From assembly GCF_045037415.1 (NCBI RefSeq), contig NZ_CP173440.1: 64,000 bases of DNA. One strand, written 5' to 3'. The stretch is from Escherichia coli (GTDB lineage: Bacteria; Pseudomonadota; Gammaproteobacteria; Enterobacterales; Enterobacteriaceae). Below the pieces are notes generated by a model, which saw nothing but the letters and a program-made list of their open reading frames with translations, had not been told where the DNA came from and searched no databases. Below, in pieces: positions 25,894 to 43,487 of this stretch (positions within the stretch are counted from its first letter, which is position 1; each line of letters opens with the position of its first letter). The translations under genes were made by a program, and so were the position numbers.

Positions 25894-26420
25894 GATCCGA
25901 TCATTACCACTGTTCGAGGTACCGAAACTCAACCACCAGCACTACCCTGCAGAGAGGCAACACCCACTGGTTTTGTTCTTATCATACTAATAAATAACGA
26001 ATTATTAAACTGTATGACAGTGATCTACGTTATGTCTTCGGCATATTTGTTGTTGTTTATTCCGATCTGGGATCCAGCTTCGGTAAGAGTTAGGGGTCAA
26101 ATCCCCTAAAAGGAGACAAATGCTGTGTTTGTAAACGATTTTGTGGGTCCAGCCACTTATCCCCGTTATCCACACCCTATAACCAATAATTGATCCCAAT
26201 ATGATCCTAGATCTAACCCATAAAAACCAAAAGGATCCCCGGCGCTGTATCCAATTGAATTATATAAGAAAATCGACACTTTTGATTAACCGTCGTACGT
26301 GTTTTTGTTAATGTTCATATGGAGTTTCATTAATGCATGAATGATTTTAGTTAACAGTCGTATGCTGGATGATCTACAGTAATGGGATTCAACATTAACG
26401 GTCGTATGTTTAGGATAGGA
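25894..26420 (+). other. oriV-like region (DnaA box, GATC cluster, iterons)
   Basis: TTATCCACA at 26166-26174 with TTATCCCCG just upstream. GATC at 25894, 25899, 26064, 26071, 26192, 26203, 26210, 26234. Three iterons follow. Confidence 0.6.
26285..26408 (-). repeat. three iterons (consensus CRTACGACNGTTAAT)
   Basis: ATTAACCGTCGTACG 26285-99, GTTAACAGTCGTATG 26350-64, ATTAACGGTCGTATG 26394-408. The last lies 12 nt before the rep ATG. Confidence 0.75.
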
Positions 26421-26439
26421 ATGACTGTGAACAAGAAAA
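26421..26439 (+). pseudogene. detached first 6 codons of the rep gene
   Basis: AGGATAGGA SD plus ATG ACT GTG AAC AAG AAA A abutting the IS. Continues in frame as ...INNEIKEQ at 53299 on the minus strand. Confidence 0.7.
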
Positions 26440-26699
26440 CGGAATCTATGGTCACTCCCGTTTTTGCAACACCGATTTTGACGATAAATTGGCTTGCTTG
26501 AATCTATCCGGCGTCTGAATGGGATTTTATTCCCGCGCCTCGATGAGTTCCGCGCCTGATGAACCTCCAGAAAATATACGGCTTCAATGAGCCTTTCCGT
26601 TTTACAGGTTCCTCAACAGGCCGGTGGGCCGTTAGTATCATCAATATCAGTATTCGCAAAACCAGATCAGTGATTCTTTAAACCGGTGTATTTCTGCCG
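26440..26699 (-). ncRNA. candidate seekRNA/bridge-RNA region of copy 1
   Basis: 260-bp non-coding tail 3' of the transposase gene; see copy 2. Confidence 0.3.
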
Positions 26700-27704
26700 T
26701 TATGCTACATAAGTTTGCTGTCGTGCCGTTAGGGCCCAGGCTATTCTGGCCAGCTTGTTTGCCAGAGCACAAGTGACGACAAAGTTGCTTTTCCTACACA
26801 GTAGATCCCTGACCCAATCGGCCAATTTGCCAGACTGGTGTTCCAGTTTTTGTATGAATACCCTGGCACATTGAACCAACAAAGTTCGGATCTTTTTGTT
26901 ACCTCGCTTACTAATTCCCAGCAATGTCGTCCGACCTCCCGTGCTGTACTGTCGGGGTACCAGCCCTGTTGCCGCCGCAAAGTCACGACTGCTGGCGTAC
27001 TGCTTCCCGTCGCCAATCTCAGTTGAAATAGTACTCGCTGTCAGTGTTCCGACGCAGGGAATGCTCAGCAAGCGCTGTCCAATCTCATCTTCGTCCAACT
27101 TTCGTTTCAACTGGGATTCCAAATCTTTAATCTGCTCAACAAGATAGTGATAATGCTGTTGTAATTTCAGCAATAACTGGCTGAGGTATAGAGGCAAACT
27201 ATTGTCCTCAAGAAGGGTACTCAGTCGGCTAATAACGGCAGCTCCTCGTGGAACGCTGATGCCAAATTCCAGCAGAAAAGCATGCATCTGATTGGTTGTT
27301 TTTACCTTATCCTGAACCAGGGATTCACGGACACGATGCAGCGCACGCATTGCCTGCTGAGATTCAGTTCTGGGCTGTACAAAACGCATAGACGGACGCG
27401 ATGCAGCTTCACAAATAGCTTCGGCGTCGACAAAGTCGTTTTTGTTACTTTTAACGAATGGACGGACAAATTGTGGTGATATCAGCTTAGGAAAATGCCC
27501 CAACTCTTCCAACTTGCGTGCCATAAAGTGAGAGCCACCACAGGCTTCCATTGCGATGGTTGTAGCGGGGCATGTCGCCAAAAATTCGATTAACTTTGGC
27601 CGTGTAAATTTTTTACGGTAAACAGCCTTGCCGCGACGATCTTGGCAATGAATATGGAAAGAGTTTTTACCCAGATCGATACCAATGAGCGCAATGTTTT
27701 CCAT
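26700..27704 (-). CDS. IS110-family DEDD transposase
   Basis: 334 aa; MENIALIGIDLGKNSFHIH... N-terminal RuvC-like signature typical of IS110/IS1111. Confidence 0.92.
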   Translation of the reverse strand: MENIALIGIDLGKNSFHIHCQDRRGKAVYRKKFTRPKLIEFLATCPATTIAMEACGGSHFMARKLEELGHFPKLISPQFVRPFVKSNKNDFVDAEAICEAASRPSMRFVQPRTESQQAMRALHRVRESLVQDKVKTTNQMHAFLLEFGISVPRGAAVISRLSTLLEDNSLPLYLSQLLLKLQQHYHYLVEQIKDLESQLKRKLDEDEIGQRLLSIPCVGTLTASTISTEIGDGKQYASSRDFAAATGLVPRQYSTGGRTTLLGISKRGNKKIRTLLVQCARVFIQKLEHQSGKLADWVRDLLCRKSNFVVTCALANKLARIAWALTARQQTYVA

Positions 27705-27771
27705 GATAGTTCTCCGAATGAAAGCCTATCCTCAGCATAGTACCGGGAAGGAGGGAGTGACCATCTCATTA

Positions 27772-28023
27772 AATGTCATCAATCACTACATCAAAACCTG
27801 TGAACATCTCCGAAATGTGATCACATTCTTCAAATTGCTGAGCGGTAGGGTATAGAGCATCGGGAACCTCAAGTTCAGCCAAACATGATTTACCAGACCC
27901 GGTTTCTCCAATAATAAATACAAGAGCTTTATCTTCTGTTTGCTTGAGATATTTAGTAATGACCCCCATGTTATCCTCAAGATTTTTCATTACTAAAGCA
28001 GGTAAGTTTTTATCAAGATTCAT
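27772..28023 (-). pseudogene. N-terminal half of small P-loop protein, truncated by the IS
   Basis: Walker A IIGETGSGKS and Walker B-like FDVVIDDI, then the IS-supplied stop. The C-terminal half is at 54632..54862 on the other strand. Confidence 0.8.
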
Positions 28024-28074
28024 GTTAAACCTCTTATTAAATTTACTGTTATAGAAAAATTGACAACACGGTAT

Positions 28075-28485
28075 TTATTCATTCTTCCAGTACGTTACAC
28101 CATCGTCACAGAGATACCCTGTCTGGTCAGGTTCACCTCCAATAAAAACACCAGCCTGACCTTTTAGTGAAACACCCACTCCCGTCGTGGTAGCACCTTC
28201 TCTTTTTTCTATAACTTTGCAATGCTCAGCTGCAAAGTCTCGCCAGTCCTGTTCCTTCTGGTCGCTTGCCAACACCAAAACCACCAGCACGGACATAACT
28301 CCACACAGGAGTGCAATGCCAGCCAGTCCGGAAGCAAATGTTGTCAGTAAAGAAAAGTCCTTAAACAAAACAGCGCCAAGAACCAATACCACAAGCAAGG
28401 CATAAAAAATTACTGCTCCGTTACTTGTTAATAATGACGTTCCCCAATCCCAAAAGGAATTAACAGTAATTTCACTCTGCGTCAT
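28075..28485 (-). CDS. membrane protein
   Basis: MTQSEIT start after an AAGGTGAG SD; 3 TM helices. Confidence 0.55.
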   Translation of the reverse strand: MTQSEITVNSFWDWGTSLLTSNGAVIFYALLVVLVLGAVLFKDFSLLTTFASGLAGIALLCGVMSVLVVLVLASDQKEQDWRDFAAEHCKVIEKREGATTTGVGVSLKGQAGVFIGGEPDQTGYLCDDGVTYWKNE

Positions 28486-28514
28486 AATTCTCACCTTCAG
28501 TTTAATGGAAATCT

Positions 28515-28922
28515 TCAAACAAAGTCTAAAACTGTGCTGAATTGTTCTGCTTCAGGTAACATCGGCTTCAGCCCACTACGTCTTGCAATGCGAGTAACGA
28601 GTATTAATGTATCGGTCGTATCAGGCAAAGTTATTTGTTTGTGAGAAATTCGGATATCGTCTTCATTAACCATGGAAACATCTACATCGCCAACGCCAAT
28701 GGTGATTGAGAATGTCTTATCCGAACCGTAAAAAAGCACCAGCTCAGTTAATGGTCCACCAGCCCGATAACAAGTCAGGGACATTTTATGAATGCTGCCA
28801 ATATTTGAAATGCAGCTATCAATGAAGTCATCGGCATGCTCGTGCTGAATAAGACGATCTGTAGAGGTAACTCCATACAGAAACTTTAAGTGGTTACCAT
28901 TTGATTGATTGATACCTTTCAT
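28515..28922 (-). CDS. hypothetical protein
   Basis: 135-aa ORF; its stop overlaps the next ORF. Confidence 0.55.
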   Translation of the reverse strand: MKGINQSNGNHLKFLYGVTSTDRLIQHEHADDFIDSCISNIGSIHKMSLTCYRAGGPLTELVLFYGSDKTFSITIGVGDVDVSMVNEDDIRISHKQITLPDTTDTLILVTRIARRSGLKPMLPEAEQFSTVLDFV

Positions 28923-28931
28923 TAATTAGCC

Positions 28932-29339
28932 TTAGGAGTTATTTTTGTTAAAAAGCATTGCCACTGAGCCTATACCTAAAAGGACGGTCATACCGTAAAG
29001 CAAATACGATGAAATATTGTAGAGATCAAAACCGAGTATGGTGCGTGCTTTTTCATCCGGCAAAACCACGGTAAATATAAGGTTCCACAAAGCAATTAAA
29101 ATTATCTGGGCACCAAATAATCTAGGCAACGCGCCAAGTTCTTCGAATGCAAACAAACACATAGTCACAACCAACACAACCATAATGCCAATGAATGAAC
29201 ATAATATCGCTGAAATCCCAAAACCAAACGCAGTAAACACAATTGATTCTTTGGCGGTTAATCCCGTGACTCCGTAGACCAATAGCACCATAATAATAAA
29301 AAAAAGAAAACCCTTTATAAATGCCATAAAATCACCCAA
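28932..29339 (-). CDS. membrane protein
   Basis: 135 aa with 4 TM helices. Confidence 0.55.
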   Translation of the reverse strand: MGDFMAFIKGFLFFIIMVLLVYGVTGLTAKESIVFTAFGFGISAILCSFIGIMVVLVVTMCLFAFEELGALPRLFGAQIILIALWNLIFTVVLPDEKARTILGFDLYNISSYLLYGMTVLLGIGSVAMLFNKNNS

Positions 29340-29517
29340 GATTATTAGAAAATGATCTTTTGTTGGCCAAACAGAAGCTTACAATAACAATGTATTTAAA
29401 CCAATAAATCATTCAACCTATTTTATGTTGTAAGCAACTGAATTTAGCCTTCTGGAATTTCTAAAAGATTTATCGAGCCTCATAAAAGATAAAATTCCTG
29501 CTCAGCCTTTCTCCCGC

Positions 29518-29700
29518 TTACGCGCAATTAAATCCCTGCGACGCAACCAGCGGTGAAATATATCTTATGAGTAAATTAAAAACAAAGCCGAGTGTAAGGC
29601 TCAGGATTAACACCACGATAAAGCGATGTGGGTCTTTACCCAGAACAATATCTAAAAATCTTCGCATGATATTTGTAAGATAATTTAAAAAAAGAACCAT
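29518..29700 (-). CDS. small membrane protein
   Basis: 60 aa with 2 TM helices. Confidence 0.4.
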   Translation of the reverse strand: MVLFLNYLTNIMRRFLDIVLGKDPHRFIVVLILSLTLGFVFNLLIRYISPLVASQGFNCA

Positions 29701-29742
29701 CTTTTATCCCCTTCTATACCAATTCACAAATCATGAGGCAAG

Positions 29743-29760
29743 CCGGGGAAAACTCCCCGG
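29743..29760 (-). terminator. hairpin after the parB-like gene
   Basis: CCGGGG-AAAACT-CCCCGG, 15 nt past the stop. Confidence 0.45.
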
Positions 29761-29774
29761 TTACGCCTTAAATA

Positions 29775-31016
29775 TTATTGCTCTGAGTTTTTTTTCTGGA
29801 TTTTTTCCAGATGCTTATCGTAGCTGTCTTTGGCTGCAGTCAGCTGCAAAAACTCTTCATAGGTTAACGTCAGTTGATACTGGGCTTTAGCGAGAACCTC
29901 TGCACCGTCTTCCATAAAGGGAATTTCTTTCGCTTCGGTAACGATACGGTTAATAACATCAAGAGAGTTATCTACAATCTCTTTGGAGATTTTTTTCGGC
30001 AGCACGTCGAACACCGACGGCTGAGATTTGATATTTTGTTTAGGTTCGCGTTTCGCCGCAGGGGTCCGTTTCGGTTCGGATTTTTCACCGCCTTCCCCTT
30101 CTTCTGAACCGCCACCCGCAACGCCTGCATCATTGCCTGCAGAGCTTTCAATGACACCAGCAGCCGCGTCAGAGGCACTATTAGATCCGTTACCTGCATC
30201 AGTCGTTGTAATGGTTGTCACATTGCCATCAGATTCACCATTAGTGTCGTTTTCACCTGTACGCTTAGCAAGAAGGACCTGACCAATGGTTTTGTCGGTA
30301 GCTTTGCCAAACTTATCAAACGCTTCCTGAATGATAGCGACACAGTTATCCGGGTATTTCTCCATCACGTCGAGTGCTGCGTAGTATGCTACTACACCTT
30401 TAACGATCAGACCTTTTAACGCCTCCGGGGCGGTGTGAACTTTGAGCAATTTACGGACATGGGTTACGGAGACTTTACGGTCTGCGGCCAGCTCTTCGAT
30501 GCTCATAGGCTCTTCTGCGCTGTTGTGCATGCGATACATGGACTCAGCCTGAGCAACGATCGAGACCGGAAGTTGATCGTTTCCTTTAAGATTAAAAAGT
30601 TCTGCTTTACTGTCAGAGCCACGGAATTCGTCAACACGAATTTTATCAACCGGGCCCTCACCCCGTTCTGCGCGAATTTTATTAGCCAGTGGAATTGCAC
30701 GGTGACGGCAGTGTCCCTGACGAATGACAACCTGACCATCACGAACCTGGACAACCATAGGGGCCATTTCCAGAGGGCTATCGGCATATTGCTGAGCCAG
30801 ACGCGCCAGGTGGTCCTTAACTTCCGGGAGTTCCCAGTAAGCCTCACCCAGGCCAGCGGTACGTGTGTTAAAGCCAGGGATGATGTTCAGATGCGTCGGG
30901 TCCATAACAAGACCATTGCCCAGACGACCACCGATACCATTTTTTTCTAAGAAGGTACGCAGAGAAACATTTTCGTTTTTGGCTTTAGCTGGAGTTGCCA
31001 TAGTTGCAGTAGTCAT
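29775..31016 (-). CDS. ParB/KorB-like DNA-binding protein
   Basis: ParB/Srx N-domain (VVIRQGHCRHRAIPLAN, GxxRxxA-like box). HTH SIEELAADRKVSVTHVRKLLKV. Long Gly/Asp/Ser-rich linker. No parA neighbour. Confidence 0.8.
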   Translation of the reverse strand: MTTATMATPAKAKNENVSLRTFLEKNGIGGRLGNGLVMDPTHLNIIPGFNTRTAGLGEAYWELPEVKDHLARLAQQYADSPLEMAPMVVQVRDGQVVIRQGHCRHRAIPLANKIRAERGEGPVDKIRVDEFRGSDSKAELFNLKGNDQLPVSIVAQAESMYRMHNSAEEPMSIEELAADRKVSVTHVRKLLKVHTAPEALKGLIVKGVVAYYAALDVMEKYPDNCVAIIQEAFDKFGKATDKTIGQVLLAKRTGENDTNGESDGNVTTITTTDAGNGSNSASDAAAGVIESSAGNDAGVAGGGSEEGEGGEKSEPKRTPAAKREPKQNIKSQPSVFDVLPKKISKEIVDNSLDVINRIVTEAKEIPFMEDGAEVLAKAQYQLTLTYEEFLQLTAAKDSYDKHLEKIQKKNSEQ

Positions 31017-31126
31017 TGAATTTTCCTCTTCCTGTTGTATGTGGGTAAACGGTCATTGCCGTTGTTAGACCCAGGATACATTCTCAAAACGCTCCATCAA
31101 GCCCCTATTTTCACTTTGGCGTGAAA

Positions 31127-31885
31127 AAAGTTACTTTTTTTTGTTCACGGCAAAAATTTTACACATGATTCTTCTGTGGCAAGGGCTCCAGGAGCCGGAT
31201 TTCGGTGTTTATGTGAAGAAAATTTTTTCAGTGGTATGCCGGGGATCATAATTTTTGGATAATTTTGAAGGAGATACGAACAGTGAAGGTGATTACAGAC
31301 GATGCATGTCTCATTGATTTTTAGGACATAAATCGTCAAAAGTTACTTTTTTGAGGGTGATAACGACACTTGAACACGCTTCTCAGGACAGAAAAGTAAC
31401 TTTTTTCAGTGCTGAGCCCACTCTTTCAAAAGTTACTTTTTGATAAAACCTGCGTTCGGGGAAGGAGGCAAAGCTTGCGGGGGGAAGGAAGAAACTATTT
31501 TTATCTGATTGTGCAAATCATAGACGCTCAGCCCGTCATGTTGATCCCCGTACGCAGATAGACAAATGTTCGGGGTTTAAAAAGTTACTTTTCAGGTGCT
31601 GTGCTGTTTCACGCTGCCGGATACATAGCAGGTACAGGTATCCTGTCCTGCTATGAGAAGACCAGCGCCCCTGTTTAGTTCGTCTCTGTTTGCAGCTCTT
31701 TGCGAGCGTTTGCGATCAACTCGTTCACTTCATCGCGGTCAAATCCTGGCATTGCGGGCAAAACCGTATCGGAAGGAACGGCATCAATCCACTCAAGAGC
31801 CGCAAGCAGTGCGCTTAGTAATTGTTCATTAATTTTCATTAGACCGCCTATTTCAACCTTTTTACTATCTTTAAAAAGTTACTTT
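31127..31885. promoter_or_regulatory. cluster of six AAAGTWACTTT palindromes upstream of the parB-like gene (parS/operator-like array)
   Basis: Exact cores at 31127, 31339, 31393, 31429, 31581 and 31875. Confidence 0.6.
31675..31839 (-). CDS. small hypothetical protein (54 aa)
   Basis: Below the track cutoff; MKINEQLLSALLAALEWIDAVPSD... Confidence 0.35.
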   Translation of the reverse strand: MKINEQLLSALLAALEWIDAVPSDTVLPAMPGFDRDEVNELIANARKELQTETN

Positions 31886-31899
31886 TGCTGAGTGCAAAC

Positions 31900-32355
31900 T
31901 CAATCTTTAGACCACTCGATAAGCGCATTATGCAGTTCCATCGCGCCGGAAGAACGAAGCTCAGCGTCCTCGTACGATATCCCGAGGCGGTCCATGACGC
32001 AATCCGTATCCAGAAAGTCAGAGGTGGCGTTCAGAGCTTCTTTAATGACCTGTCCATGGGTAACCGCCACTAACTTGCGCTCGTGATCGGCTATCTGTAA
32101 TGCTTTGCCTCCATCAATGCTGTTGCCCTGGTCGTCTATCCCACTGGTTGTCTGACAGTCGTTATCGAGGACAGATACTGGCTCATCGGCATTAGCGGTG
32201 CCGTGTTTTGCATTTTCCGCTAACGCGATAGCTGCCTGAACGGCGGGTATCATGGCAGTGGAATCTACGTTATCGGAAAATAAAATATCGGTTTCCATTT
32301 CAACATTATCTTCGAGCCAGCGAAGAAGAATTTCTAAAGAATCCTGAATGTTCAT
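31900..32355 (-). CDS. acidic hypothetical protein
   Basis: 151-aa ORF, strongly acidic. Confidence 0.6.
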   Translation of the reverse strand: MNIQDSLEILLRWLEDNVEMETDILFSDNVDSTAMIPAVQAAIALAENAKHGTANADEPVSVLDNDCQTTSGIDDQGNSIDGGKALQIADHERKLVAVTHGQVIKEALNATSDFLDTDCVMDRLGISYEDAELRSSGAMELHNALIEWSKD

Positions 32356-32642
32356 ATTTAGCTCCGGCCAAAAAAATAATAACAGGGGTGAAGACAGACA
32401 TTCTAAATTATGAAGAATTCATGCCGCAGAACCAGGATACATTTTCAACTCAAAAAAGCAACCCTTTGCAATCAGGAAAAGTTAATTAATTGCAACCTGA
32501 AAATTCACCACTTAAATAAACAACGGGGTAATATTATTGGAAAGAAACAGCAAGCCGGTTATTTTAAGGAGCTCTGCTATCATGCTTGTCATTATATTTT
32601 AAGCCACTGTTTATGCGGCACTCACAATATGCATTCAAATAT

Positions 32643-33251
32643 TCAGGCGTCAGATTGATTCCTGGAATTGATAAATGCATTTAAGCATTCCTGCATTCCC
32701 CAGGATGCCTGCCACTTGCAAAGAAAAAGGTACTTTCTCTCAAGGTTCTCCATCTCTTGAAGATTTTCCGCTGAAAAATACGTCCATATATCATGCCAGC
32801 ATACATCATAAGTAACCCCTGCGGGTGGTTGGTACGTCATGGCATCTGCACAGATAATGTCCACACGCTTATCATCTATAAAGGCCGGAGCGACAAGGTT
32901 GATAACGTCTTGCTCTTTTTCAATAACGGTTACGTGGGTCACATCCTTTTTTTGCAAAATGACATGGAGAACCATCCCCAGTCCAAGCCCGTTGATAAGC
33001 ACGCGCCCCGTTGCCCGCTCAATAAATTCCATGCACGTGTTAATTTCCATCGGTGTATTGGACATGACGACTTCGCCATTATTTGAGAGACGACGATACT
33101 TACCAGGTGGAATGTATTCATTCTGATTGCCTGTTACGTCGGCCCTGAGAGAGAGCATATGCGCTTTCTCCTGAGAGATGGTGAATGTATCCAATGTCCA
33201 CGATCCGGATTTACCGTCCGTAACAGGGAGATCGTAAAAAAGAGTTCCCAT
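32643..33251 (-). CDS. class I SAM-dependent methyltransferase-like protein
   Basis: VLINGLGLGMV (motif I-like GxGxG), then VTVIEKE acidic loop and ICADA. Confidence 0.6.
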   Translation of the reverse strand: MGTLFYDLPVTDGKSGSWTLDTFTISQEKAHMLSLRADVTGNQNEYIPPGKYRRLSNNGEVVMSNTPMEINTCMEFIERATGRVLINGLGLGMVLHVILQKKDVTHVTVIEKEQDVINLVAPAFIDDKRVDIICADAMTYQPPAGVTYDVCWHDIWTYFSAENLQEMENLERKYLFLCKWQASWGMQECLNAFINSRNQSDA

Positions 33252-33320
33252 TTTCAGTCCTGTAGTGTCGGAGCGTTACTTACCGGAAATTACCACAAAC
33301 CGGCTACTTTTGCAGGAATA

Positions 33321-33770
33321 TCAGTCGCTGAAATGTGTCTTTTGCCGCCGCCACACAATGTAACGTTCAAGACACCCGCACATGATGGCCGTATCACGGG
33401 CTCCCTGAGCGGCCACGGCAGCTGACGTACGCCGTCCACCATTTCCTGTGAACTCGCGGGAGGATGCGTCCTGTAGCGTTGTCTTATCGCCATTCATCCG
33501 GTTCAGGAGCGCGTACAAATCGTCGAGGCTGAGGTGTTTCCAGCGAACGTCTGACAACCTGATTTCCTCCTGATTTGCTTTCTCATACCGTTCGTCACGG
33601 GTTAAAAGCTCACTTGGCCGGGCTTTCCTGAATGCTTGTGTTGCTTGTTCGACAGCACTTTCTTTACTGCTGGCAAAGAGATAATTTGCGCCGATGGAAT
33701 AACGGTATTTCCAGCGACTGCCGACCTTTCTGAGAAGGTCAAATTCAATCAACTCCTTTTCCGTTACCAT
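33321..33770 (-). CDS. hypothetical protein
   Basis: 149-aa ORF. Confidence 0.55.
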   Translation of the reverse strand: MVTEKELIEFDLLRKVGSRWKYRYSIGANYLFASSKESAVEQATQAFRKARPSELLTRDERYEKANQEEIRLSDVRWKHLSLDDLYALLNRMNGDKTTLQDASSREFTGNGGRRTSAAVAAQGARDTAIMCGCLERYIVWRRQKTHFSD

Positions 33771-33779
33771 GATTTAACC

Positions 33780-33965
33780 TTAATTAATGAATGATTTTGA
33801 CGATTCAAGAATAAGGTTTTCAATGTCACGTTTTGCTGCCTGACGTGCGCGATGTTTATCGGCACGCAGTACACTACTGTAGGCATTATTTTTACGGTAT
33901 CCCCTGGAACGACATAATCCACAGGTGCAACCAGTTACAGAATAAGACAAGCCATAAGGTTTCAT
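33780..33965 (-). CDS. small basic Cys-rich protein
   Basis: MKPYGLSYSVTGCTCGLCRSRGY... after a GAGGGAAAGG SD. The track ORF starts further upstream. Confidence 0.45.
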   Translation of the reverse strand: MKPYGLSYSVTGCTCGLCRSRGYRKNNAYSSVLRADKHRARQAAKRDIENLILESSKSFIN

Positions 33966-34221
33966 ACCTTTCCCTCTTTTTAAATATCCGCATCGCGATA
34001 AGTATATTAAATAAAACAGATAGTGCAAGTACCGTAATTAATATTAATCACACCCGGAGCGGCCGGTATAATTCATAATTTCTGAAGCATTATGTAGACC
34101 GGCCAGATAAAACCATCCTGAAAACAGTTTTCTTTTGATTGAAATGTTAGCGGTTAATTGGTCCATATTTTTTACTGGCAGGGAGGGAAACAGTCCAGCA
34201 TGCTCTTCGCTTTTACGAAGT

Positions 34222-34989
34222 CTATTCCGCCGGTGTGTGAATATGAAAGCGTGGTTCTCCATCTTCAGGGTCAGGCCAGTTCCGGGATTTGTTCACTTTC
34301 AGCTTTTCGATCATCGCCCGGGTAATCTGCTCGTCAGTGATACCGGCTCGGCGTTGGGCATCCCAGAGTAAAAATTGCATATCAGCCCATTCAGCATAGT
34401 TACCGGGCGCTTCTGCGGTTTCCAGCGCCTCGAGACTGAGATGCTTCAGCGGGCCAGTCGGGCCAACATCGCCGAATGTATCCTGAGACCACTCGGCGTG
34501 GTCACGGCGGATCTGGTCGCGTTCAGGAGATGGAGAGGCATAGAGATAGAGTGCTATATCAGAACCGTCTAATATGGGTTCAGGCCAGATTTCCCCAAAA
34601 CCATCTTCGCACTGAAGCTCAGTGCGGGATGTGTATACCACCGGCCTATTATTTTTCGCAAACCCGCGATGTTGCAGGAGTTCGCGGATAACGGCGGCAA
34701 TAACACCAGGCGCAGCCAAACGGCCAAACTCGCATTGATAATTTGGGTCGGGGTGACAAACCGATTCTTCCGCATACCAGAGCATGTTCGCCAGGTAATC
34801 ATCCTCAACTGGCGTAGAAGTTTCGGCCTGACGTCGTTTTTTTAACTCTCGGGCCATTATTGCTGCCTGATGGGGTGAAACCACTTCGCCAGCGATGATC
34901 CGGTCCAGTTCATCGACTGAAAAGGGATAATCATCCGGAAGAGTGTGGGTCTCTATATTGAGTAGGGCTTTGTTACTTTCGTGGCTCAT
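34222..34989 (-). CDS. phage-type protein with C-terminal DUF550/MazG-like dNTP pyrophosphohydrolase domain
   Basis: C-terminal HAEWSQDTFG...PLKHLSLEALETAE...EWADMQFLLWDA...KLKVNKSRNWP resembles DUF550 of lambdoid prophages (recollection). Confidence 0.55.
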   Translation of the reverse strand: MSHESNKALLNIETHTLPDDYPFSVDELDRIIAGEVVSPHQAAIMARELKKRRQAETSTPVEDDYLANMLWYAEESVCHPDPNYQCEFGRLAAPGVIAAVIRELLQHRGFAKNNRPVVYTSRTELQCEDGFGEIWPEPILDGSDIALYLYASPSPERDQIRRDHAEWSQDTFGDVGPTGPLKHLSLEALETAEAPGNYAEWADMQFLLWDAQRRAGITDEQITRAMIEKLKVNKSRNWPDPEDGEPRFHIHTPAE

Positions 34990-35052
34990 AGTGTGCTCCA
35001 GTTATTTTCGATCACTACGCCGAAGGTTAAAGCTAATCGCATCGTTTTGCCT

Positions 35053-35577
35053 TTAAATATCCAGGTCTGCTAGAAAGCGTTGTTGAATCTCATTTTTTTG
35101 AATGATGTCCACCAGCTGGCTGGGGTCAACCGTCTTAGCCAGCAGATTTGAGGCATCATCCAGTGCCCAGGCTTTTAACACCATATCGCCTTCAGACATA
35201 AACATTTCCCGTCCATTTTCATGGTTGTACCATTTCTGATTATCATCCAGTGTCACGAGGATATGCGTCGGTTCGTTGCCAGGATCCCCGTTGTCGAAAT
35301 AGTGGATTGCATAGAGGCCCGGTTTTAGACTTTGCTGGGTGAGCTGGAGGTTATTGTTGCTCTGTGCCAGCAGATTTGAGGCATCATCCAGCGCCCAAGC
35401 TTTTAAAAATGTATCGCCTTGGTGTCGCAACATATCGAGGCCTGTTCCCTCTTCACGCCAGAGTTGGTTGGCGTCCTGGGTCGCGAGGGTATAATACAGA
35501 TCACCATCAACATCCCAGCAATCGAAATACCAGACAGCATAGAGACCCGGTTTCAGGTGATTTAAATTCTGTTTCAT
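35053..35577 (-). CDS. hypothetical protein made of two tandem homologous domains
   Basis: LKPGLYAVWYFD...KAWALDDASNLLAQ repeated as LKPGLYAIHYFD...KAWALDDASNLLAK. GGAGG SD before ATG 35577. Confidence 0.6.
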   Translation of the reverse strand: MKQNLNHLKPGLYAVWYFDCWDVDGDLYYTLATQDANQLWREEGTGLDMLRHQGDTFLKAWALDDASNLLAQSNNNLQLTQQSLKPGLYAIHYFDNGDPGNEPTHILVTLDDNQKWYNHENGREMFMSEGDMVLKAWALDDASNLLAKTVDPSQLVDIIQKNEIQQRFLADLDI

Positions 35578-36030
35578 AATAAGCCTCCGGTGAGCATGCA
35601 CACAGACTAAAACCTATAAAAACCCAAGTGGAATTTAATCGAAAAAAAAGAAAACCTAACTAGCAAGTGAAATACAAAGCAGGTGGTTGATACTACCAGA
35701 ATACTATTTTATTACGCTTGTTCAAGACCCAATTTTTAATGTCAGGGAAAAGAAAGAGATTTTTTGGGAGAGATTGCAATTTCTGGATGATAATTAAAAG
35801 CTGTGAAAATCTTGGAGGTGATAAAAGTGTTAATTAAAAACCATCATAAGTCAAAAAAACTGGGTAATGCTGCACATTCAGCTCTTACGAATATACAGCC
35901 TTTCCCTGAATGTTGATTGTTTATTCAACCTGTTTCAGAAGTTTTTCTATTCCTGATTTTTGTACCTGTCAACATTATCAATTCAAGATAAATAATGCTC
36001 AACAGGGTAGTCAGCCTTCACCGGCAAATA

Positions 36031-36318
36031 TTACCAGTCTCCGCCCTCCACTCTTAGGTCCGGTGCCGCATGAGCTAGTAACTCCTGCTGGGGCTGGTCA
36101 TGTTTATTATGACTTTCCCCAAGCAGCAGGCTTAAACTTCCAGACGCCGCATAATACGAAGCATCCGGGAAGTGCTCGCGGACCTCGTCCAGAAGTCGGG
36201 AGAGGTTTTTTGCGGTCCGGTAGAATCGAGAGGCTGCGTTTGGCATAGCTTCGCTTAACAGCTCATGAGCTGTTGTATTTTCACTGGATATTTTTGATAA
36301 AACGTCATCCTGGTCCAT
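36031..36318 (-). CDS. hypothetical protein
   Basis: 95-aa ORF. Confidence 0.5.
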   Translation of the reverse strand: MDQDDVLSKISSENTTAHELLSEAMPNAASRFYRTAKNLSRLLDEVREHFPDASYYAASGSLSLLLGESHNKHDQPQQELLAHAAPDLRVEGGDW

Positions 36319-36373
36319 TTACAGTTCTCCCGTTTGATGGTTGTTAATGATGGCAATAGTGCATCAGTCCTGA

Positions 36374-36535
36374 TCACACCAATCCCAGTTGCCAGGCGAT
36401 GCCCCGAATGGTGTATTCACCGCTCCACCCTGTCACAACATAGAAGCGGTCCCCGTTTTTATTACTGCCCGTTAACTTCATTTTTTTTCCGGTGCTGGCA
36501 AGTAACACTTTCATTGATTTTACAGTGACTTTCAT
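36374..36535 (-). CDS. small hypothetical protein (53 aa)
   Basis: Below the cutoff; AGGTGGA SD; MKVTVKSMKVLLASTGKK... Confidence 0.35.
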   Translation of the reverse strand: MKVTVKSMKVLLASTGKKMKLTGSNKNGDRFYVVTGWSGEYTIRGIAWQLGLV

Positions 36536-36598
36536 CTTCCACCTAAACATTCAAGACTCTCTGTTTTTCCTTACTGCTTACAAATTCATTGTGGAATA

Positions 36599-36871
36599 TC
36601 AATCCTTGATATTCATGGTGGCAGCGGCTTGTTTCCCCGTGTCGGTAAGCGTGACCGCATAAAACAAGGCGTGTTCTCTCCCCCCCTTATGTACATAGTC
36701 CACCAGCCCGAGACGAAACAGGACAGGAATAGATGGTGCAGAAATATCATCGGTGAATATCCCTGATCCTGGCCTGCATTCCCGCGCCTTTTTTCCGTCA
36801 CCACGGAGTTGATATTTACTCCCCCCGGATAATCGCCGCAGTGTGTAGATCTGTGCGTTAGTAAGCTTCAT
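36599..36871 (-). CDS. hypothetical protein
   Basis: 90-aa ORF. Confidence 0.55.
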   Translation of the reverse strand: MKLTNAQIYTLRRLSGGSKYQLRGDGKKARECRPGSGIFTDDISAPSIPVLFRLGLVDYVHKGGREHALFYAVTLTDTGKQAAATMNIKD

Positions 36872-36954
36872 CTTAAATCCTTGAGATACTGATACTTTTT
36901 AGAACCAAAAAAGAAGCCAGAATTATTATTCTCAATAATTATATATTTCCGACT

Positions 36955-37209
36955 CTACTCAAAGGTAATGACCTCCATAACACAAACATGCTGTGTAGCA
37001 TCAGGAGGAAGTAAGACACGGCAGTTGGGGCAAGGAGTCATGCGCTTGGTTATTATACTAGCTAAATCTGTCATGCGCTTGGTTATACTAGTTAAATCTG
37101 TCATTTTCTCTCGCGAGCCGTCAGAAAGTTCCATTAAAGCTTTTTCAAGTAAATTGCTCATTTTTATATATCCTCTAAGATTTATGTACAATCTGTTGTT
37201 CTCGCCCAA
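36955..37209 (-). CDS. hypothetical protein containing a 33/30-bp tandem repeat
   Basis: GTCATGCGCTTGGTTAT..AAATCT occurs twice (37037-37099), encoding RMTDL(A/T)SI(I)TK twice. C-terminal CPNC motif. Confidence 0.45.
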   Translation of the reverse strand: MGENNRLYINLRGYIKMSNLLEKALMELSDGSREKMTDLTSITKRMTDLASIITKRMTPCPNCRVLLPPDATQHVCVMEVITFE

Positions 37210-37264
37210 TGTTGAGATTATTGAATTATCTTCAACCTACAGGCGATGACCAAAATTAGTAATA

Positions 37265-37275
37265 AAAGTAACTTT
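37265..37275. promoter_or_regulatory. palindromic motif copy
   Basis: Exact AAAGTAACTTT, 56 nt upstream of 37209. Confidence 0.5.
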
Positions 37276-37462
37276 TTCCTGATTGCGACGCTAGTGCTAT
37301 CATACGCGCACAAAAAACATACCAGCACTACCGTTTGCTTTGTTATTACTCCACTTGATAAGTGAACTATACACTACGCGTCACGAGAATAGAGAGTTGA
37401 CAGGAGCTAAACTCTATCCCACTGTATATACCATTTCATACAACGAAAAGAGTGATTTGCGG

Positions 37463-37660
37463 TCATATCTGTCGCCTCATCTTCGAAATAGGGTTATTCC
37501 AGGCATCAATATCTTCCTGAATCACCCTGCCGTTACCACCGCATAACATACAACCGGATAGAAGGCCGTAACACTCAGGGCATTTTTCGAATGGCCCAAA
37601 CTGGCGCTTCCATTTTAGCAGTGCTGCTCGCTTGCCCATTTCTTCAATGGAGGGCATCAT
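37463..37660 (-). CDS. small zinc-ribbon protein
   Basis: MMPSIEEMGK...CPECYG...CMLCGGNG. AGGAGG SD; ATGA overlap with the upstream stop. Confidence 0.55.
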   Translation of the reverse strand: MMPSIEEMGKRAALLKWKRQFGPFEKCPECYGLLSGCMLCGGNGRVIQEDIDAWNNPISKMRRQI

Positions 37661-38556
37661 TTCACCTCCTGTGGGGCGGCTGCGAGCATGGCTTTGTATG
37701 TGCCTTTTGATGAAGGGTTCTTGGTGGCCATGTAGTGCAGCCACCCGGCATCAATCATCTCTTTTGTCGGTTCCTTCGGTAACATCACGTAACCAGGAGG
37801 TGCTACGTAGCGAACTTCCACTGTTCTGTCAGCACCTGTTGCCTGGTCAATGCCAATTACCGGAGAGTTGACTGCCTGGAGCATAGCGGCCCGGAAAGCG
37901 TTCCAGGAATCAGCGGCCGCATTTCGCTGGTCTTCATCCCACTGGAATACAGCGTGGTCACGACGCCTGGCGCTGGCAAGAATCTCGATACTGTCCGGAG
38001 TAGCTTCTTCCGGCACTACCAGCGTTGGCTGAGGGGCGGCGAAAAGTTCGTGCACACCATCAGGGCACATTTGACCGCCCTTTACAGTGCATACCGCCAC
38101 TGGCTCAGCCTCCACCTTCATGCCATTTGCCAGCAGAATAGTGATAGCGCGAGTTAATGCCATGCGCTCACCACTTTGAAGAATCCGAGCAGCCTCTGCG
38201 CACGAGGACTCTGCTGAACCGGCACGTTCAAGAAGATTTTTTACGTTATTTTCGTATACTCTGCAGTCTTTATCCAGCTCAGCAATACGCTGCAGGGCCT
38301 TCTCCAGTGACTCTACCAGCGCATCAACGTAACCAGCGGCACGAAGGGCAAACGCCGTGATTGATAGCTCTGCGTCAGTTTCTTGCCCGTAGCTTTCGCA
38401 TTCCGAGACAACTGCAAAATAGTCGGAGTCGATCTCGTTATTTGCCAGGTGGCGTAGCAAATTGGCCGTTTCATTTCCGTTTGCGATGAGTAGATCATGG
38501 CTCTGCGGTTGTTCGGTGATATCGGTTCTCTTGCTGCACTCAAATGAATTGTTCAT
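37657..38556 (-). CDS. hypothetical protein (coiled-coil N-half)
   Basis: The track ORF's first 29 aa look non-coding; MNNSFECSK start at 38556 chosen. Confidence 0.55.
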   Translation of the reverse strand: MNNSFECSKRTDITEQPQSHDLLIANGNETANLLRHLANNEIDSDYFAVVSECESYGQETDAELSITAFALRAAGYVDALVESLEKALQRIAELDKDCRVYENNVKNLLERAGSAESSCAEAARILQSGERMALTRAITILLANGMKVEAEPVAVCTVKGGQMCPDGVHELFAAPQPTLVVPEEATPDSIEILASARRRDHAVFQWDEDQRNAAADSWNAFRAAMLQAVNSPVIGIDQATGADRTVEVRYVAPPGYVMLPKEPTKEMIDAGWLHYMATKNPSSKGTYKAMLAAAPQEVK

Positions 38557-38665
38557 GGTTATATTCCGTATGAGAACGTGCGACCTAGAAAAGTAGAAAC
38601 ATGTCACTGTAAACCAGGTTATCATATTAAAACGTTCCTGCAACTCCTATTATCTTATCATTTAT

Positions 38666-38676
38666 AAAGTAACTTT
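38666..38676. promoter_or_regulatory. palindromic motif copy
   Basis: Exact AAAGTAACTTT, 110 nt upstream of ATG 38556. Confidence 0.5.
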
Positions 38677-38893
38677 CTGGATTTATAAGGTGGCAACCTT
38701 CTGTAAAGTTGGATGACTAAAAGCGAAGCTTTGTAGTGTGGAGGAAGTATTAACTTAAGTGGATAATTTTAAAAATCAAGGCAAACACTCGAAAAAAACC
38801 TCGGATGATAAAAGCATTTTTTATTAAGCAGGCCTTCGACCTGCTTTTTCGGAATGAGATAAAATGAAAGCTTCATTATCGCTGGTGGGAAAA

Positions 38894-39235
38894 TTAAATA
38901 TCGTCGTCAGGAAACTCTTGCTGGATGGCATGGACCAGTTCAACCTTATGCTCACGAGTTAAATCACCCCATGCAACTTTAGCCAGTGGCGCTTCGCCAT
39001 CAGTTGTTGCTTCAATATATGACCATAATTTTCTGTAAAGTTCTTGCCCCACCCCATCGAGACATTCAGCTACTTCATCCACTGTCCAGTGGTTCAGAAG
39101 TTCTGGCATAGCTATGTCATTACCAGGGCAATCGTCTGAAGAACAAAGGTCTGCGTCATGATAAATGCGACCGCAATGAACGCACTCAAAATTTGATAGA
39201 GGAATTTTTGGTACAGATACATTACTCATGATCAT
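38894..39235 (-). CDS. hypothetical Cys-rich acidic protein
   Basis: 113-aa ORF; CVHCGR...CSSDDCPG. Confidence 0.55.
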   Translation of the reverse strand: MIMSNVSVPKIPLSNFECVHCGRIYHDADLCSSDDCPGNDIAMPELLNHWTVDEVAECLDGVGQELYRKLWSYIEATTDGEAPLAKVAWGDLTREHKVELVHAIQQEFPDDDI

Positions 39236-39312
39236 ATCTCCAATATTAAGTTTCCTGCTTTATAAAATACAATGACGTCAGAACCCGGATACTACCAGTG
39301 CGGTGATATCCG

Positions 39313-39528
39313 TCATGTTCGCCCCCGTTTCAATGCCTTGTGAATTTGCTGCATCTGCCGCAACGTACTTGCATGACCCTGCCTCGGATGACATCCGCTA
39401 AACTTGGTATGTTCGCGGTCGTAGTCGTTAATTAAATCTTCCATTGCGGTGATGGCCAACTCGATTGCACTAGCAGCAGCTCGTAACTTTGCTCTTCTAT
39501 ATTCTTTTACAACGGTGGAATCATTCAT
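39313..39528 (-). CDS. hypothetical protein
   Basis: 71-aa ORF. Confidence 0.45.
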   Translation of the reverse strand: MNDSTVVKEYRRAKLRAAASAIELAITAMEDLINDYDREHTKFSGCHPRQGHASTLRQMQQIHKALKRGRT

Positions 39529-39776
39529 GAGCGATTGTCTCGGTTAATATCCTTTTTCTTTAAACCCAGGATACTACTTTGGAACTCATGTGCAAGCCCC
39601 TATTTGCAGGTTCCAGGAAAGCAAATAAGGAATGTCCATAAACACTGGGAAATAATGAGCGAAGAATAATATAGTTTCGCGATCAGTATGATGACTACAA
39701 AAAGGTGAGTATGAAGATCTTCATTATCGACGAATACCTCCCCGCTTATGCGGGGTTCTCTCTAACAGAGAGTAGG

Positions 39777-39787
39777 AAAGTAACTTT
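39777..39787. promoter_or_regulatory. palindromic motif copy
   Basis: Exact AAAGTAACTTT next to hairpin CCCCGCTTATGCGGGG (39741-56). Confidence 0.5.
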
Positions 39788-39807
39788 CTATCTGACTGCC
39801 TGTGACA

Positions 39808-40221
39808 TCATTCATCCTTTATGACAGCCCGGCACGCTTCTCGCAGTACCCACTCAACGGCATCTTTATAAGCTCCCGTTTCTACTGGCGGATTTTCACG
39901 CTTAACCTGCTCATAAAATGCTACAGCTTGTATCAATGCATCCGGCACTAGCTTTGCGTGCCGATAGAGCGGTATATCCCCTGTCTCTGAGTTCTGCTTT
40001 CCCCAAATCAGAGAGGTTTCTCGGCCCATGGCAATATGATGAAGGTTTCGTTCGTCTGTAAACACTACCGGCTCGCCGTCCATTGCGGTCAGCGCCATGC
40101 GGGCCACTCTCTTAAGAATCTCGATGTCGGCGAGCCCAAGTGTATAACCAGCTTTTAGATCAAATACAGCCTGAATATTTTCGTCTCTACTCATGCATCC
40201 GCCTAAAAAATCTAAGTCCAA
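39808..40221 (-). CDS. hypothetical protein
   Basis: 137-aa ORF; alternative start at 40194. Confidence 0.55.
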   Translation of the reverse strand: MDLDFLGGCMSRDENIQAVFDLKAGYTLGLADIEILKRVARMALTAMDGEPVVFTDERNLHHIAMGRETSLIWGKQNSETGDIPLYRHAKLVPDALIQAVAFYEQVKRENPPVETGAYKDAVEWVLREACRAVIKDE

Positions 40222-40286
40222 GTGATTCCAGCAGGGGGAGAACCTGTTTTTTGTTATAAACCGGATAATAGTGGTTAGCTGCCTAC

Positions 40287-40610
40287 TTATTTATAACTTC
40301 CGTACCACCACCCGTCCCCGCCATCAGTCAGGGATATTCGGCACTTTCCCACTGCATTAAATACGCTAACCGAGCAACTGAATATGCCCTGTCTTTGAGT
40401 TACCGTCACTCCGTTCTCGTACTCGCCAAGACGGATAGTTTTATTATCCTCATCAATCTGAATGTCTATTTTAGTTCCGCGCAGTCCAGTGTCCTTAGTA
40501 ATAAGCCCACCAGTAGCACCAGATTTTGTCTTTCTAAACGAAACGAACTTAGAACCTGGCACTCTTCCGCTACGCTTTGGTATTGTTCCCAGTTGAGATA
40601 TGAATGCCAT
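40287..40610 (-). CDS. hypothetical protein
   Basis: 107-aa ORF, abutting the upstream stop. Confidence 0.55.
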   Translation of the reverse strand: MAFISQLGTIPKRSGRVPGSKFVSFRKTKSGATGGLITKDTGLRGTKIDIQIDEDNKTIRLGEYENGVTVTQRQGIFSCSVSVFNAVGKCRISLTDGGDGWWYGSYK

Positions 40611-41255
40611 CTATTCAACCTCCATCTTGATGCCAGCGGCGGCCAGCAAAACGGCCTCTACTACCTCCATGGACGGTGTACCCTCCCAACATTCGCATTG
40701 GTCATCGTACCCTATTGCGTTCTGAACTTTGCTGATAAATTCTGGATCAATTTTCCAACCCGGGTCAGAATCTTTAGGTTTCGGCAGCTGCACGGTGCGG
40801 GACTCCAGCTCTGCAATCTTTCGCTGCTGATTTAATAGCGTTCGCTGGGCTATGAATAACTGGCCTCGTGCCAGTTCATTCTCGGTTTGCGTGTTCTTCA
40901 GCGCCTCCAGAACGTAACCATCTGGTAATTCCGATGAGATGCCAGTCAGCATGCGGATAATGGCGGAACCGCGTGCGGCATATTCAGTAATGGATACGTC
41001 AGAGCCAGTGTCGACATCAGCGATCTCAAAACGTAAATCTACTGTGTCGCTATCAATATCAGTTGCCTCAAAGCTACCGATAAGCTCTAATACAGCGGCA
41101 ACATGCTCGACCTCATCCGCCACTACCGGCTTGCTACTCATCGCGGCCAGCGCCAGCTTGAAAGCAGCCAATGTGTTGCTGTCAGTGATGCCAGCGCCTT
41201 CAATTGCTGAAATTTGATGCTGTAACCACTCTCTGCTTAAGGTTTCTGTTGTCAT
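40611..41255 (-). CDS. hypothetical protein
   Basis: 214-aa ORF; start overlaps the upstream stop. Confidence 0.6.
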   Translation of the reverse strand: MTTETLSREWLQHQISAIEGAGITDSNTLAAFKLALAAMSSKPVVADEVEHVAAVLELIGSFEATDIDSDTVDLRFEIADVDTGSDVSITEYAARGSAIIRMLTGISSELPDGYVLEALKNTQTENELARGQLFIAQRTLLNQQRKIAELESRTVQLPKPKDSDPGWKIDPEFISKVQNAIGYDDQCECWEGTPSMEVVEAVLLAAAGIKMEVE

Positions 41256-41479
41256 GATTTAGCCCTCACCCATCCCTTAGTTGTGCTGCGGATTACACCA
41301 GCTTTACGTAGCGCCTGGAGTCGGCGATCGAGAATGCGAAAAGGTTCAGGTTTATTCTCCTCCGTTGCAAGTCGGATACATTCTTCTGCAACATCTTTGA
41401 CGTACAGACTGGAAAATGGCGTTGGATGCCCGCTAATTTTAGTCAGTATTTTTGAGTCAAGCTCGTTATATTTTGTCAT
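41252..41479 (-). CDS. hypothetical protein (winged-helix-like)
   Basis: MTKYNELDSKILTKISGHP... start chosen. Confidence 0.5.
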   Translation of the reverse strand: MTKYNELDSKILTKISGHPTPFSSLYVKDVAEECIRLATEENKPEPFRILDRRLQALRKAGVIRSTTKGWVRAKS

Positions 41480-41744
41480 TGTCAGATTTCTCATGTTTTA
41501 AATTGTCTATGCAGAACTGAGTAAGAACTCTGGCCTTCTCACCAGTAATTCTATACCGGTATGGATTTCCAAAGGTGTCAATCGTGTCGCCGAGTGCGTA
41601 CCAGTCGTCAGTGTAGGGGCACGATTCGAATTTTCGTCCATCCCCACCAGTGACATAACGATGACGACGTGTGATCCCCCTGCGTGTGCAACTCCCGCCC
41701 TGCCAGCATGTCGCACCAGTTGGGTAAAAATCGCGCTTAGCCAT
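41466..41744 (-). CDS. hypothetical protein
   Basis: 92-aa ORF. Confidence 0.5.
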   Translation of the reverse strand: MAKRDFYPTGATCWQGGSCTRRGITRRHRYVTGGDGRKFESCPYTDDWYALGDTIDTFGNPYRYRITGEKARVLTQFCIDNLKHEKSDNDKI

Positions 41745-41956
41745 TACTCATCTCCATCGAAGGGTCTGACTCTCCGGATGCGAGTTGCGGTTACGACCGC
41801 ACTCATTACTGAATTAGCCTTCTTCTTTGCCCCCACCATATTTAAAATATATTGGGAAAAATCCGTGCGAATTGAGTGACGGGTGTGGGGTACTCGCTGA
41901 GTTGCTTTAGCTGAGACAAAGCACCGTTTATTTCTGACTGTGTCAGTTCGGTGAAA

Positions 41957-42145
41957 TCAGTCATCTCTGCTCTCTGCGATAATTTCTGAAATCAAACGTT
42001 CCACGACCCAATGGTTTATATTCTGAACTGATGGAAAACGCTTATATCTTCCGCCTCTGCCATTTCTTTGCCCGCGCTGAGCATTCAATCGCCGGAGTAC
42101 GCCATTGTTGATTTTGGGTGGCAGTGCGGTGATATCAGTTTTCAT
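41957..42145 (-). CDS. hypothetical protein
   Basis: 62-aa basic ORF; start overlaps the upstream stop. Confidence 0.4.
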   Translation of the reverse strand: MKTDITALPPKINNGVLRRLNAQRGQRNGRGGRYKRFPSVQNINHWVVERLISEIIAESRDD

Positions 42146-42639: not shown

Positions 42640-42731
42640 ACAACGCTTCCTCAAAAGAACTTCACACTAGATTTGCAGAAATTTGCAGGCTATGTCCGGC
42701 AAGAAGTGGATGTAGTTTTATGACAGACAAA

Positions 42732-42950: not shown

Positions 42951-43115
42951 TTATTAGCCTCCGTTACCCAGTAAATTTTATTCGCATTAATCACCAGGAT
43001 AGCAACTTAGAACTCCCAGTCAACCCCTCTAAACACCCTATTTGTCATTAATTCATAATCACTGGAGCACTTAGCAGCAATGTAATAAAGCATGACATTA
43101 ATTACGTGATTATGT

Positions 43116-43479: not shown

Positions 43480-43487
43480 CCAGGTAG

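Follow-up and report, generated by a model that had tools for sequence, protein, structure and literature searches.

A RepFIB-like iteron replicon divided between two inverted IS4321/IS5075-type insertions at the ends of a 25.5-kb inversion

We investigated a 64,000-nt stretch of Escherichia coli DNA (contig NZ_CP173440.1; hereafter, the window), which encompasses an iteron-containing plasmid replicon in two pieces: the replication origin (oriV) together with the start of rep, the gene for the replication initiator Rep, and, 26 kb away on the opposite strand, the body of rep with further iterons. Each piece adjoins one of two identical, inversely oriented copies of an insertion sequence (IS) of the IS4321/IS5075 type. 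An earlier note on this DNA had correctly recognized the split iteron replicon and a chimeric open reading frame (ORF) running from the IS into rep. The cause was absent from that note, and we attribute it to the insertion of two target-specific IS copies in inverted orientation, followed by recombination between them.

On the origin side, the iterons are accompanied by a DnaA box and by DNA rich in AT and in Dam sites. The perfect DnaA box reported in the earlier note (TTATCCACA, 26166-26174) proved to be the sole perfect copy in the window, and an imperfect box (26157-26165) lies directly upstream of it. The interval 25690-26440 contains 14 GATC sites, whereas the window averages 2.9 per kb; nowhere else in the window are GATC sites as dense over 300 bp as in the origin region, which also includes stretches of 68–76% AT. 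The iteron motif TTAACNGTYGTAYG occurs exactly 7 times in the 64 kb, compared to 0.17 copies expected, a count reached in 0 of 100 shuffles. Three of these iterons, all on the plus strand (26286-26299, 26351-26364 and 26395-26408), precede rep, and 12 nt separate the end of the third from the ATG, with an AGGA-type Shine-Dalgarno (SD) sequence in between, so that the GATC cluster, the iteron number and the spacing all agree with what the note had described. A promoter-like site at 26351-26380, found in a scan that did not rise above chance, has its -35 element within iteron 2 and iteron 3 just 3' of its -10 element; this candidate would be compatible with an autoregulated rep promoter. Past the eighth codon, the rep frame (MTVNKKTE) reads on into the IS, giving a 26-aa (amino acid) peptide, MTVNKKTESMVTPVFATPILTINWLA.

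The rest of rep encodes the body of an initiator of the Rep_3 family, a family characterized by WH1 and WH2 domains: the Pfam model PF01051 (Rep3_N) matched with an E value of 2.3e-5 and 25.3 bits, above its cutoff of 22.4, and PF21205 (Rep3_C) scored 17.8 bits, under its cutoff of 21.1. A PDB sequence search and the NCBIfam models yielded no match for Rep. Its identity to RepB is 46% for the IncFIB(K) type of Klebsiella and about 40% for IncFIB of E. coli. Strand and the 52234 end of the rep body were as given in the earlier note, and the other limit moved by one position, from 53299 to 53298. Beyond the rep body, the four further minus-strand iterons that the note had listed are present, and, by analogy with other replicons of the same architecture, are presumed to form a copy-control or incompatibility locus. 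With the inversion undone, all 7 iterons share the orientation of rep, 3 upstream and 4 downstream, making up a set of directly repeated iterons beside rep well above chance. The four operator copies that the note had placed among the downstream iterons were not recovered: apart from the iteron family, a repeat search of 51600-52300 gave nothing but short chance matches in two copies. Just past the downstream iterons, at 49864-51084 (minus strand), there is an ISL3-family transposase gene, called ISCfr12 family in the related plasmid pEBSI041-1 (NZ_MW245019.1).

What this replicon lacks is a contiguous rep under its own iteron-overlapping promoter, the body being 26 kb off, on the other strand and behind an IS. 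As the note had stated, the only long reading frame across the rep body is chimeric: a 383-aa ORF that begins inside the IS and overlaps the start of the transposase gene divergently. RefSeq annotates a 359-aa 'RepB family' version of it from a GTG at 53313, with AAGGAGG 2 nt upstream, and the annotation of the interrupted Rep in pEBSI041-1 is a 372-aa version.

The two IS copies form the single long inverted repeat of the window, with arms (26436-27773 and 54634-53297) that are exactly identical over 1,338 bp, including a shared flank. Both arms code for a DEDD transposase (334 aa) that belongs to the IS110 family (PF01548 DEDD_Tnp_IS110, E 1.8e-20; PF02371 Transposase_20, E 4.5e-20; NCBIfam NF033542 transpos_IS110, 341 bits versus a cutoff of 140), which RefSeq names 'IS110-like element IS4321 family transposase' (WP_000427620.1). 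Comparison with empty sites sets the IS length at 1,327 bp; the boundary of copy 1 is ambiguous by one A, and at the empty sites no ambiguity exceeds 1 nt. The 12-bp subterminal inverted repeats (ATGGTCACTCCC) are set 3 nt in from one IS end and 7 nt in from the other. With a DEDD transposase, a length of about 1.3 kb with subterminal repeats, orientation-specific insertion without target duplication and a target specificity known from the literature, the element is of the IS4321/IS5075 type, in the IS1111 group of the IS110 family, on every feature that could be compared.

The target sites were defined from uninterrupted relatives. The intact rep of NZ_CP032223.1 (362 aa) reads ATGACTGTGAACAAGAAAACGGAA/AAAATTAAC (MTVNKKTE/KINN; the slash marks the insertion point), which places the cut after codon 8 and not after codon 6-7, as proposed in the note. 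The rep 5' stub ends in the 9 nt AAAACGGAA, which are found beside the other IS copy too and, from the window alone, look like part of the repeat. A first reconstruction of rep, in which the whole of 26436-27773 was taken as the IS, yielded a 360-aa Rep, 6 nt short by comparison with the intact gene, and was rejected because these 9 nt belong to both target sites and not to the IS. Both copies interrupt AAAACGGAA/AA, which in the two cases has one orientation with respect to the IS, and neither shows a clear target duplication; the rep site is CAAGAAAACGGAA/AAAATTAAC and the second site, site B, GCATCAAAACGGAA/AATGTCATC. Site B lies in a gene whose small product resembles P-loop NTPases, with no more than weak matches in Pfam (nSTAND3, AAA_16); joining the two parts of the gene restores a 162-aa ORF, and the joined site is found uninterrupted at 100% identity in other plasmids, being intact in 339 of 509 records. 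An intact paralogue of the site-B gene (54929-55360, plus strand) directly follows the 3' fragment.

Published accounts report that IS5075/IS4321 hits the terminal repeats of Tn21-type transposons and look-alike sites, such as one in ureC (PMC8269217; PMC11187229), and the flank AATAAAGCAC reported for IS4321R (PMC6657655) is consistent with a target at AAAACGGAA/AA. Set against these accounts, both insertion sites in the window are mimics of the normal IS target in Tn21-family terminal repeats. If the Tn21 repeat contains …CAGAAAACGGAAAATAAAGCAC…, as we take it to do, the rep site would be a 13-nt match. Moreover, the 10-mer AAAACGGAAA, found as the left flank at each insertion site, recurs in the 3' non-coding region of the IS, 97 nt past the transposase stop codon (54467-54476, plus strand; 26594-26603, minus strand). 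The 255-nt non-coding region of the IS has a fold z-score of -3.0, and a comparison of the IS with Rfam matched no family. The sequence match and the stable fold suggest that AAAACGGAAA may be the target-matching segment of a seek or bridge RNA of the IS. A third copy of the 10-mer, at 43783-43792 (minus strand) in the context AGAAAACGGAAATAG, represents an unoccupied near-target for the IS; three A residues follow the GG there, compared to four at site B and six at the rep site.

The distribution of gene halves around the two IS copies is reciprocal. Copy 1 has the rep 5' stub on its right and the 5' part of the site-B gene on its left; copy 2 has the rep body on its left and the 3' part of the site-B gene on its right. 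Reciprocal halves of two genes at two inverted IS copies imply inversion of the intervening 25.5 kb by recombination between the copies. In pEBSI041-1, both IS copies are present and the same intervening genes run in the opposite, uninverted order; this collinearity is supported by identical protein accessions that occur in reversed order and by junction searches. Thus, identical inverted copies, reciprocal gene halves, an uninverted progenitor arrangement and both empty sites are all on record (Table 1).

Table 1. Coordinates of the split replicon, the two IS copies and the inverted segment in the window.
Feature	Position	Strand	Basis or content
oriV of RepFIB-like replicon	25894..26420	+	DnaA boxes, GATC cluster, AT-rich stretch, 3 iterons, promoter-like site, SD
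rep 5' stub, first 8 codons (MTVNKKTE)	26421..26444	+	Comparison with intact rep
IS4321/IS5075-type IS, copy 1 (1,327 bp)	26445..27771	-	Transposase gene 26700-27704 (-)
Inverted segment (25,527 bp) relative to progenitor order in pEBSI041-1	27772..53298		Junction searches, gene order
Site-B gene, 5' part (small P-loop NTPase-like)	27772..28023	-	Joined-ORF test
Four downstream iterons, rep orientation	51775..52042	-	Motif search
rep codons 9-362 and stop codon, Rep_3-family initiator body	52234..53298	-	ORF, Pfam, intact relative
Chimeric IS-rep ORF (383 aa from ATG at 53385)	52234..53385	-	ORF list
IS4321/IS5075-type IS, copy 2 (1,327 bp)	53299..54625	+	Transposase gene 53366-54370
Site-B gene, 3' part	54626..54862	+	Joined-ORF test

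We searched PLSDB with the reconstructed replicon and with the junction sequences. The reconstructed replicon matched 450 records, nearly all of them large conjugative Klebsiella plasmids typed IncFIB,IncHI1B, with identities of 99.8–100%, and the near-identical plasmids carry this same typing. The intact rep target site was found in 163 records, the rep5'-IS junction in 74 and the IS-rep3' junction in 71. The junction matches comprise two IS sequence variants (100% and approximately 98–99% identity), some with an 'IS5075 family' transposase, so there has been more than one insertion at the rep site. Among the PLSDB records, NZ_CP117741.1 (341,460 bp; USA, urine) is the only one with both inversion junctions, at 100% identity. 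Compared to that plasmid, the window has an extra IS1 at 4051-4818 (768 bp, with InsA/InsB ORFs and a 9-bp target duplication) and is without the ISKpn26 near 32.4 kb, making it a sibling and not a copy; because of these differences elsewhere, the inversion is supported by two independent assemblies.

The rep halves have been separated in other ways as well: in NZ_CP140511.1 they are inverted and far apart, and in NZ_CP117746.1 and NZ_ON261191.1 they lie on the same strand, 41 kb apart. With 4–6 IS copies per plasmid, recombination among them appears to be frequent. The insertion step itself is documented in one patient with a chronic infection. There, the index plasmid p283.4 (NZ_CP097238.1, 283,371 bp) carries an intact rep at 76757-77845, and the later p284.7 (NZ_CP097233.1, 284,698 bp, exactly 1,327 bp longer) has the rep5'-IS junction at 76721-76840; the insertion into rep thus arose de novo within one patient. 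The authors of that study mention for this step only 'the additional insertion of a 1.3 kb IS4321' (PMC9676029). The descendants of p284.7, p390.4 and p235.4, retain the interrupted rep. In four further records, CP154635.1, CP154636.1, CP154638.1 and CP154639.1, the IS in rep is present as remnants of 171-276 bp (approximately 1,190 bp in CP154635.1, where the site-B copy is shortened too), which looks like repeat collapse during assembly and not like biology. Separately, a group II intron reverse transcriptase/maturase gene (ltrA) at 61980-63467 (plus strand) has an identical second copy near the HI1B replicon of NZ_CP117741.1 (4165-5652), a repeat that could be another seed for rearrangements.

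The sibling plasmid also offers a candidate for the replicon that maintains these plasmids. NZ_CP117741.1, typed IncFIB,IncHI1B, encodes an intact 294-aa Rep at 1-885, directly followed by about 28 tandem 42-bp repeats (941-2164) that overlap a 'hypothetical protein' coding sequence and presumably constitute the iteron or control array of the primary replicon. The RepHI1B gene of pSIM-1-BJ01 has the same length, 885 bp (PMC6657655), and IncHI3 plasmids are described as combining repHI3B with a repFIB-like replicon (PMC6339943). The 294-aa HI1B-type Rep is only 36% identical to the split Rep; the identities of the latter to the IncFIB RepB proteins identify it as the repFIB-like partner. We considered whether RepHI1B might use the orphaned FIB iterons and found this unlikely, the HI1B unit GGTCACGTTTACCC being unrelated to TTAACCGTCGTACG and the two Reps being only distantly similar. 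A search for a plasmid in which the interrupted rep is the only replicon covered six of the rep5'-IS records: five of the six, including NZ_CP117741.1 and pEBSI041-1, are also IncHI1B, and the sixth, OW967782.1, is typed IncFIB,IncFIB without IncHI1B.

Taken together, these observations suggest the following history. The window would be a piece of an IncHI1B/IncFIB (pNDM-MAR-like, 'IncHI3') conjugative plasmid, a type known from Klebsiella pneumoniae. Its secondary, RepFIB-like replicon consisted originally, as intact relatives show, of a DnaA box, a GATC- and AT-rich region, 3 iterons, rep (362 aa, Rep_3) and 4 iterons. An IS4321/IS5075-type element would have inserted after codon 8 of rep, at the Tn21-repeat mimic AGAAAACGGAA/AAAA, and a second, identical copy in the opposite orientation into the small P-loop gene 25.5 kb off, at the mimic CAAAACGGAA/AAT. 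Recombination between the inverted copies, most likely ordinary homologous recombination, would then have flipped the intervening segment, leaving the origin and the 8-codon stub at one IS copy and the rep body with the downstream iterons at the other. The native promoter and SD would yield only the 26-aa peptide, the rep body would be left without a promoter, and the plasmid would be replicated by an intact IncHI1B-type replicon outside the window. We observe directly the structure, the empty state of both targets, the intermediate arrangements and, in the nearest relative, the second replicon; for the inactivity of the split replicon and a RecA-type route of inversion we rely on inference. 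We consider this account as a whole to be very probable. Of the two alternatives raised in the earlier note, a dead replicon on a plasmid that relies on another one is thus the favored one, with the intact 294-aa Rep of NZ_CP117741.1 as the likely substitute, and an IS-borne outward promoter driving rep gained no positive support: the RepFIB-like replicon is most likely dead and dispensable.

Several points weigh against this account. The left end of the IS provides AAGGAGG and an in-frame GTG, as well as in-frame ATGs farther upstream, and Rep minus its first 8 residues could, from its reading frame, be translated from any read-through transcript. Alignments with Rep homologues begin at about residue 24-28, the first approximately 27 residues not being conserved, and a truncated protein might therefore be active. 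Consensus scans could miss a weak or non-canonical promoter. The second replicon is not inside the window, its presence being deduced from the nearest, non-identical relative (the IS1 and ISKpn26 differences), and the sequence is equally compatible with RecA-type recombination and with recombinase-mediated exchange between the copies.

The first three of these points bear on the possibility that the split replicon still works, with a chimeric Rep, made from a transcript that begins in IS copy 2 or runs through it, acting in trans on an origin 26 kb away. Translation would proceed from the GTG at 53313 or the upstream ATGs, and autoregulation would be rewired, the iteron-embedded promoter no longer driving rep. 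The chimeric ORF is open, its SD and GTG are in frame, RefSeq calls the protein, the exchange affects only 8 non-conserved residues at the N terminus, and neither the origin nor any of the 7 iterons is damaged. Action in trans is known for the iteron initiators of F, P1 and R6K. Yet, when the IS and its flanks were scanned for consensus promoters, the minus strand had a single 9/12 match (54457-54429), 1.1 kb upstream of the rep body, and matches overall were fewer than in shuffles; a more lenient scan produced nothing convincing near the IS left end. The SD-to-GTG spacing of only 2 nt is poor, and the genes beyond copy 2 run on the strand opposite to the rep body. In the IS1111 family, a promoter is assembled from both IS ends in the circular intermediate and faces in the transposase direction (PMC11187229), so that its parts point away from the rep body, and inspection of ISEc11 revealed no other promoter (PMC11187229). 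The persistence of the interrupted rep without further decay in 74 plasmids could be taken as a sign of function, but these plasmids are too closely related (99.8–100% identity) for the lack of decay to be informative, and their maintenance is explained by the intact second replicon. We therefore regard a working split replicon as unlikely. The broader conjecture that the IS left end (…AAGGAGGGAGTGACC…) by accident supplies a ribosome-binding site and a GTG, such that rep interrupted by the IS in at least 74 plasmids would keep producing a working Rep if a weak antisense transcript exists, has, in our estimate, only a slim chance of being correct. If true, the initiator would be free of the promoter that the iterons repress, and the window would hold an iteron replicon that was rewired in nature and works in two physically separate parts.

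With respect to the route of inversion, the exchange could have been catalyzed by the RNA-guided DEDD recombinase of the IS itself, at the two inverted IS-target junctions, instead of by host recombination. Recombinases of the IS110/IS1111 family use a bridge or seek RNA and are reportedly capable of programmable insertion, excision and inversion. Both copies sit at the same core in inverted orientation, and the 10-mer matching it is found in the IS 3' non-coding region. However, the family moves via a circular intermediate with abutted ends and not by exchange between integrated copies (PMC11187229), and RecA has ample homology to act on in 1.3 kb of perfectly identical sequence. Others have proposed inversions bounded by inverted IS5075 copies, ascribing a similar case to recombination (bioRxiv 10.64898/2026.09.09.750360). 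The two routes give an identical product, and there is no positive evidence for the recombinase route, which we consider improbable compared to homologous recombination. Finally, although segments between identical inverted repeats, here of 1.3 kb, are a classic source of mis-orientation, and collapsed IS copies do occur at two sites in the related records CP154635-CP154639, we consider it highly improbable that assembly created the inversion artificially or captured only one isomer from a mixed population, given that the independent, complete NZ_CP117741.1 has both junctions and differs elsewhere; moreover, rep is interrupted by the IS in either orientation of the segment.

The preferred account, two insertions and an inversion that silenced a dispensable RepFIB-like replicon, describes a known kind of event with known elements; the arrangement is already in the public record, and all the intermediates are in the databases. 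It does not change the understanding of iteron replicons or of IS4321/IS5075-type elements. It does have practical implications. Replicon typing with PlasmidFinder or MOB-suite still reports 'IncFIB' despite the interrupted rep, in some plasmids with rep halves tens of kilobases apart, and thereby overstates the number of working replicons. IS4321/IS5075-type elements hit short target mimics in backbone genes, and do so recurrently, the rep site being occupied in 74 public plasmids, by two or more IS variants, with one event documented inside a patient, and multiple IS copies seed large inversions that generate structural isomers. Apart from the replicon, at 56217-58660 (plus strand), a near-identical record annotates a 'type I-E CRISPR-associated protein Cas6/Cse3/CasE' beside a helicase C-terminal-domain protein; this is an orphan Cas6-like gene on a plasmid backbone, and no CRISPR array was noticed there.

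With the RepFIB-type replicons (RepFIB of F/P307, IncFIB(K) and the repFIB-like replicon of IncHI3/pNDM-MAR), the replicon in the window shares the Rep_3 initiator, the DnaA box, the GATC-rich origin and the iterons on both sides of rep, an architecture that RepFIB-type replicons have in common with P1 and mini-F; in contrast to all these, its rep is cut after codon 8, with the halves on opposite strands. The IS copies resemble IS4321 and IS5075, the 'hunters' of Tn21-family terminal inverted repeats, in the 1,327-bp length, the DEDD transposase, the 12-bp subterminal repeats and the orientation-specific insertion. Whereas these elements typically reside in transposon terminal repeats, neither window copy does: both are in backbone genes, one of them for a replication initiator, with a documented precedent in the off-target insertion into a look-alike site in ureC (PMC8269217). 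Other IS-bounded inversions, such as those at IS5075.1 in pIMP76_1 and the IS26-associated ones in pMR plasmids, likewise involve an inverted IS pair, a segment whose orientation varies among related plasmids and reciprocal gene halves. The inversion in the window differs from these in that the boundary of the segment falls inside rep, resulting in a physically split replicon.

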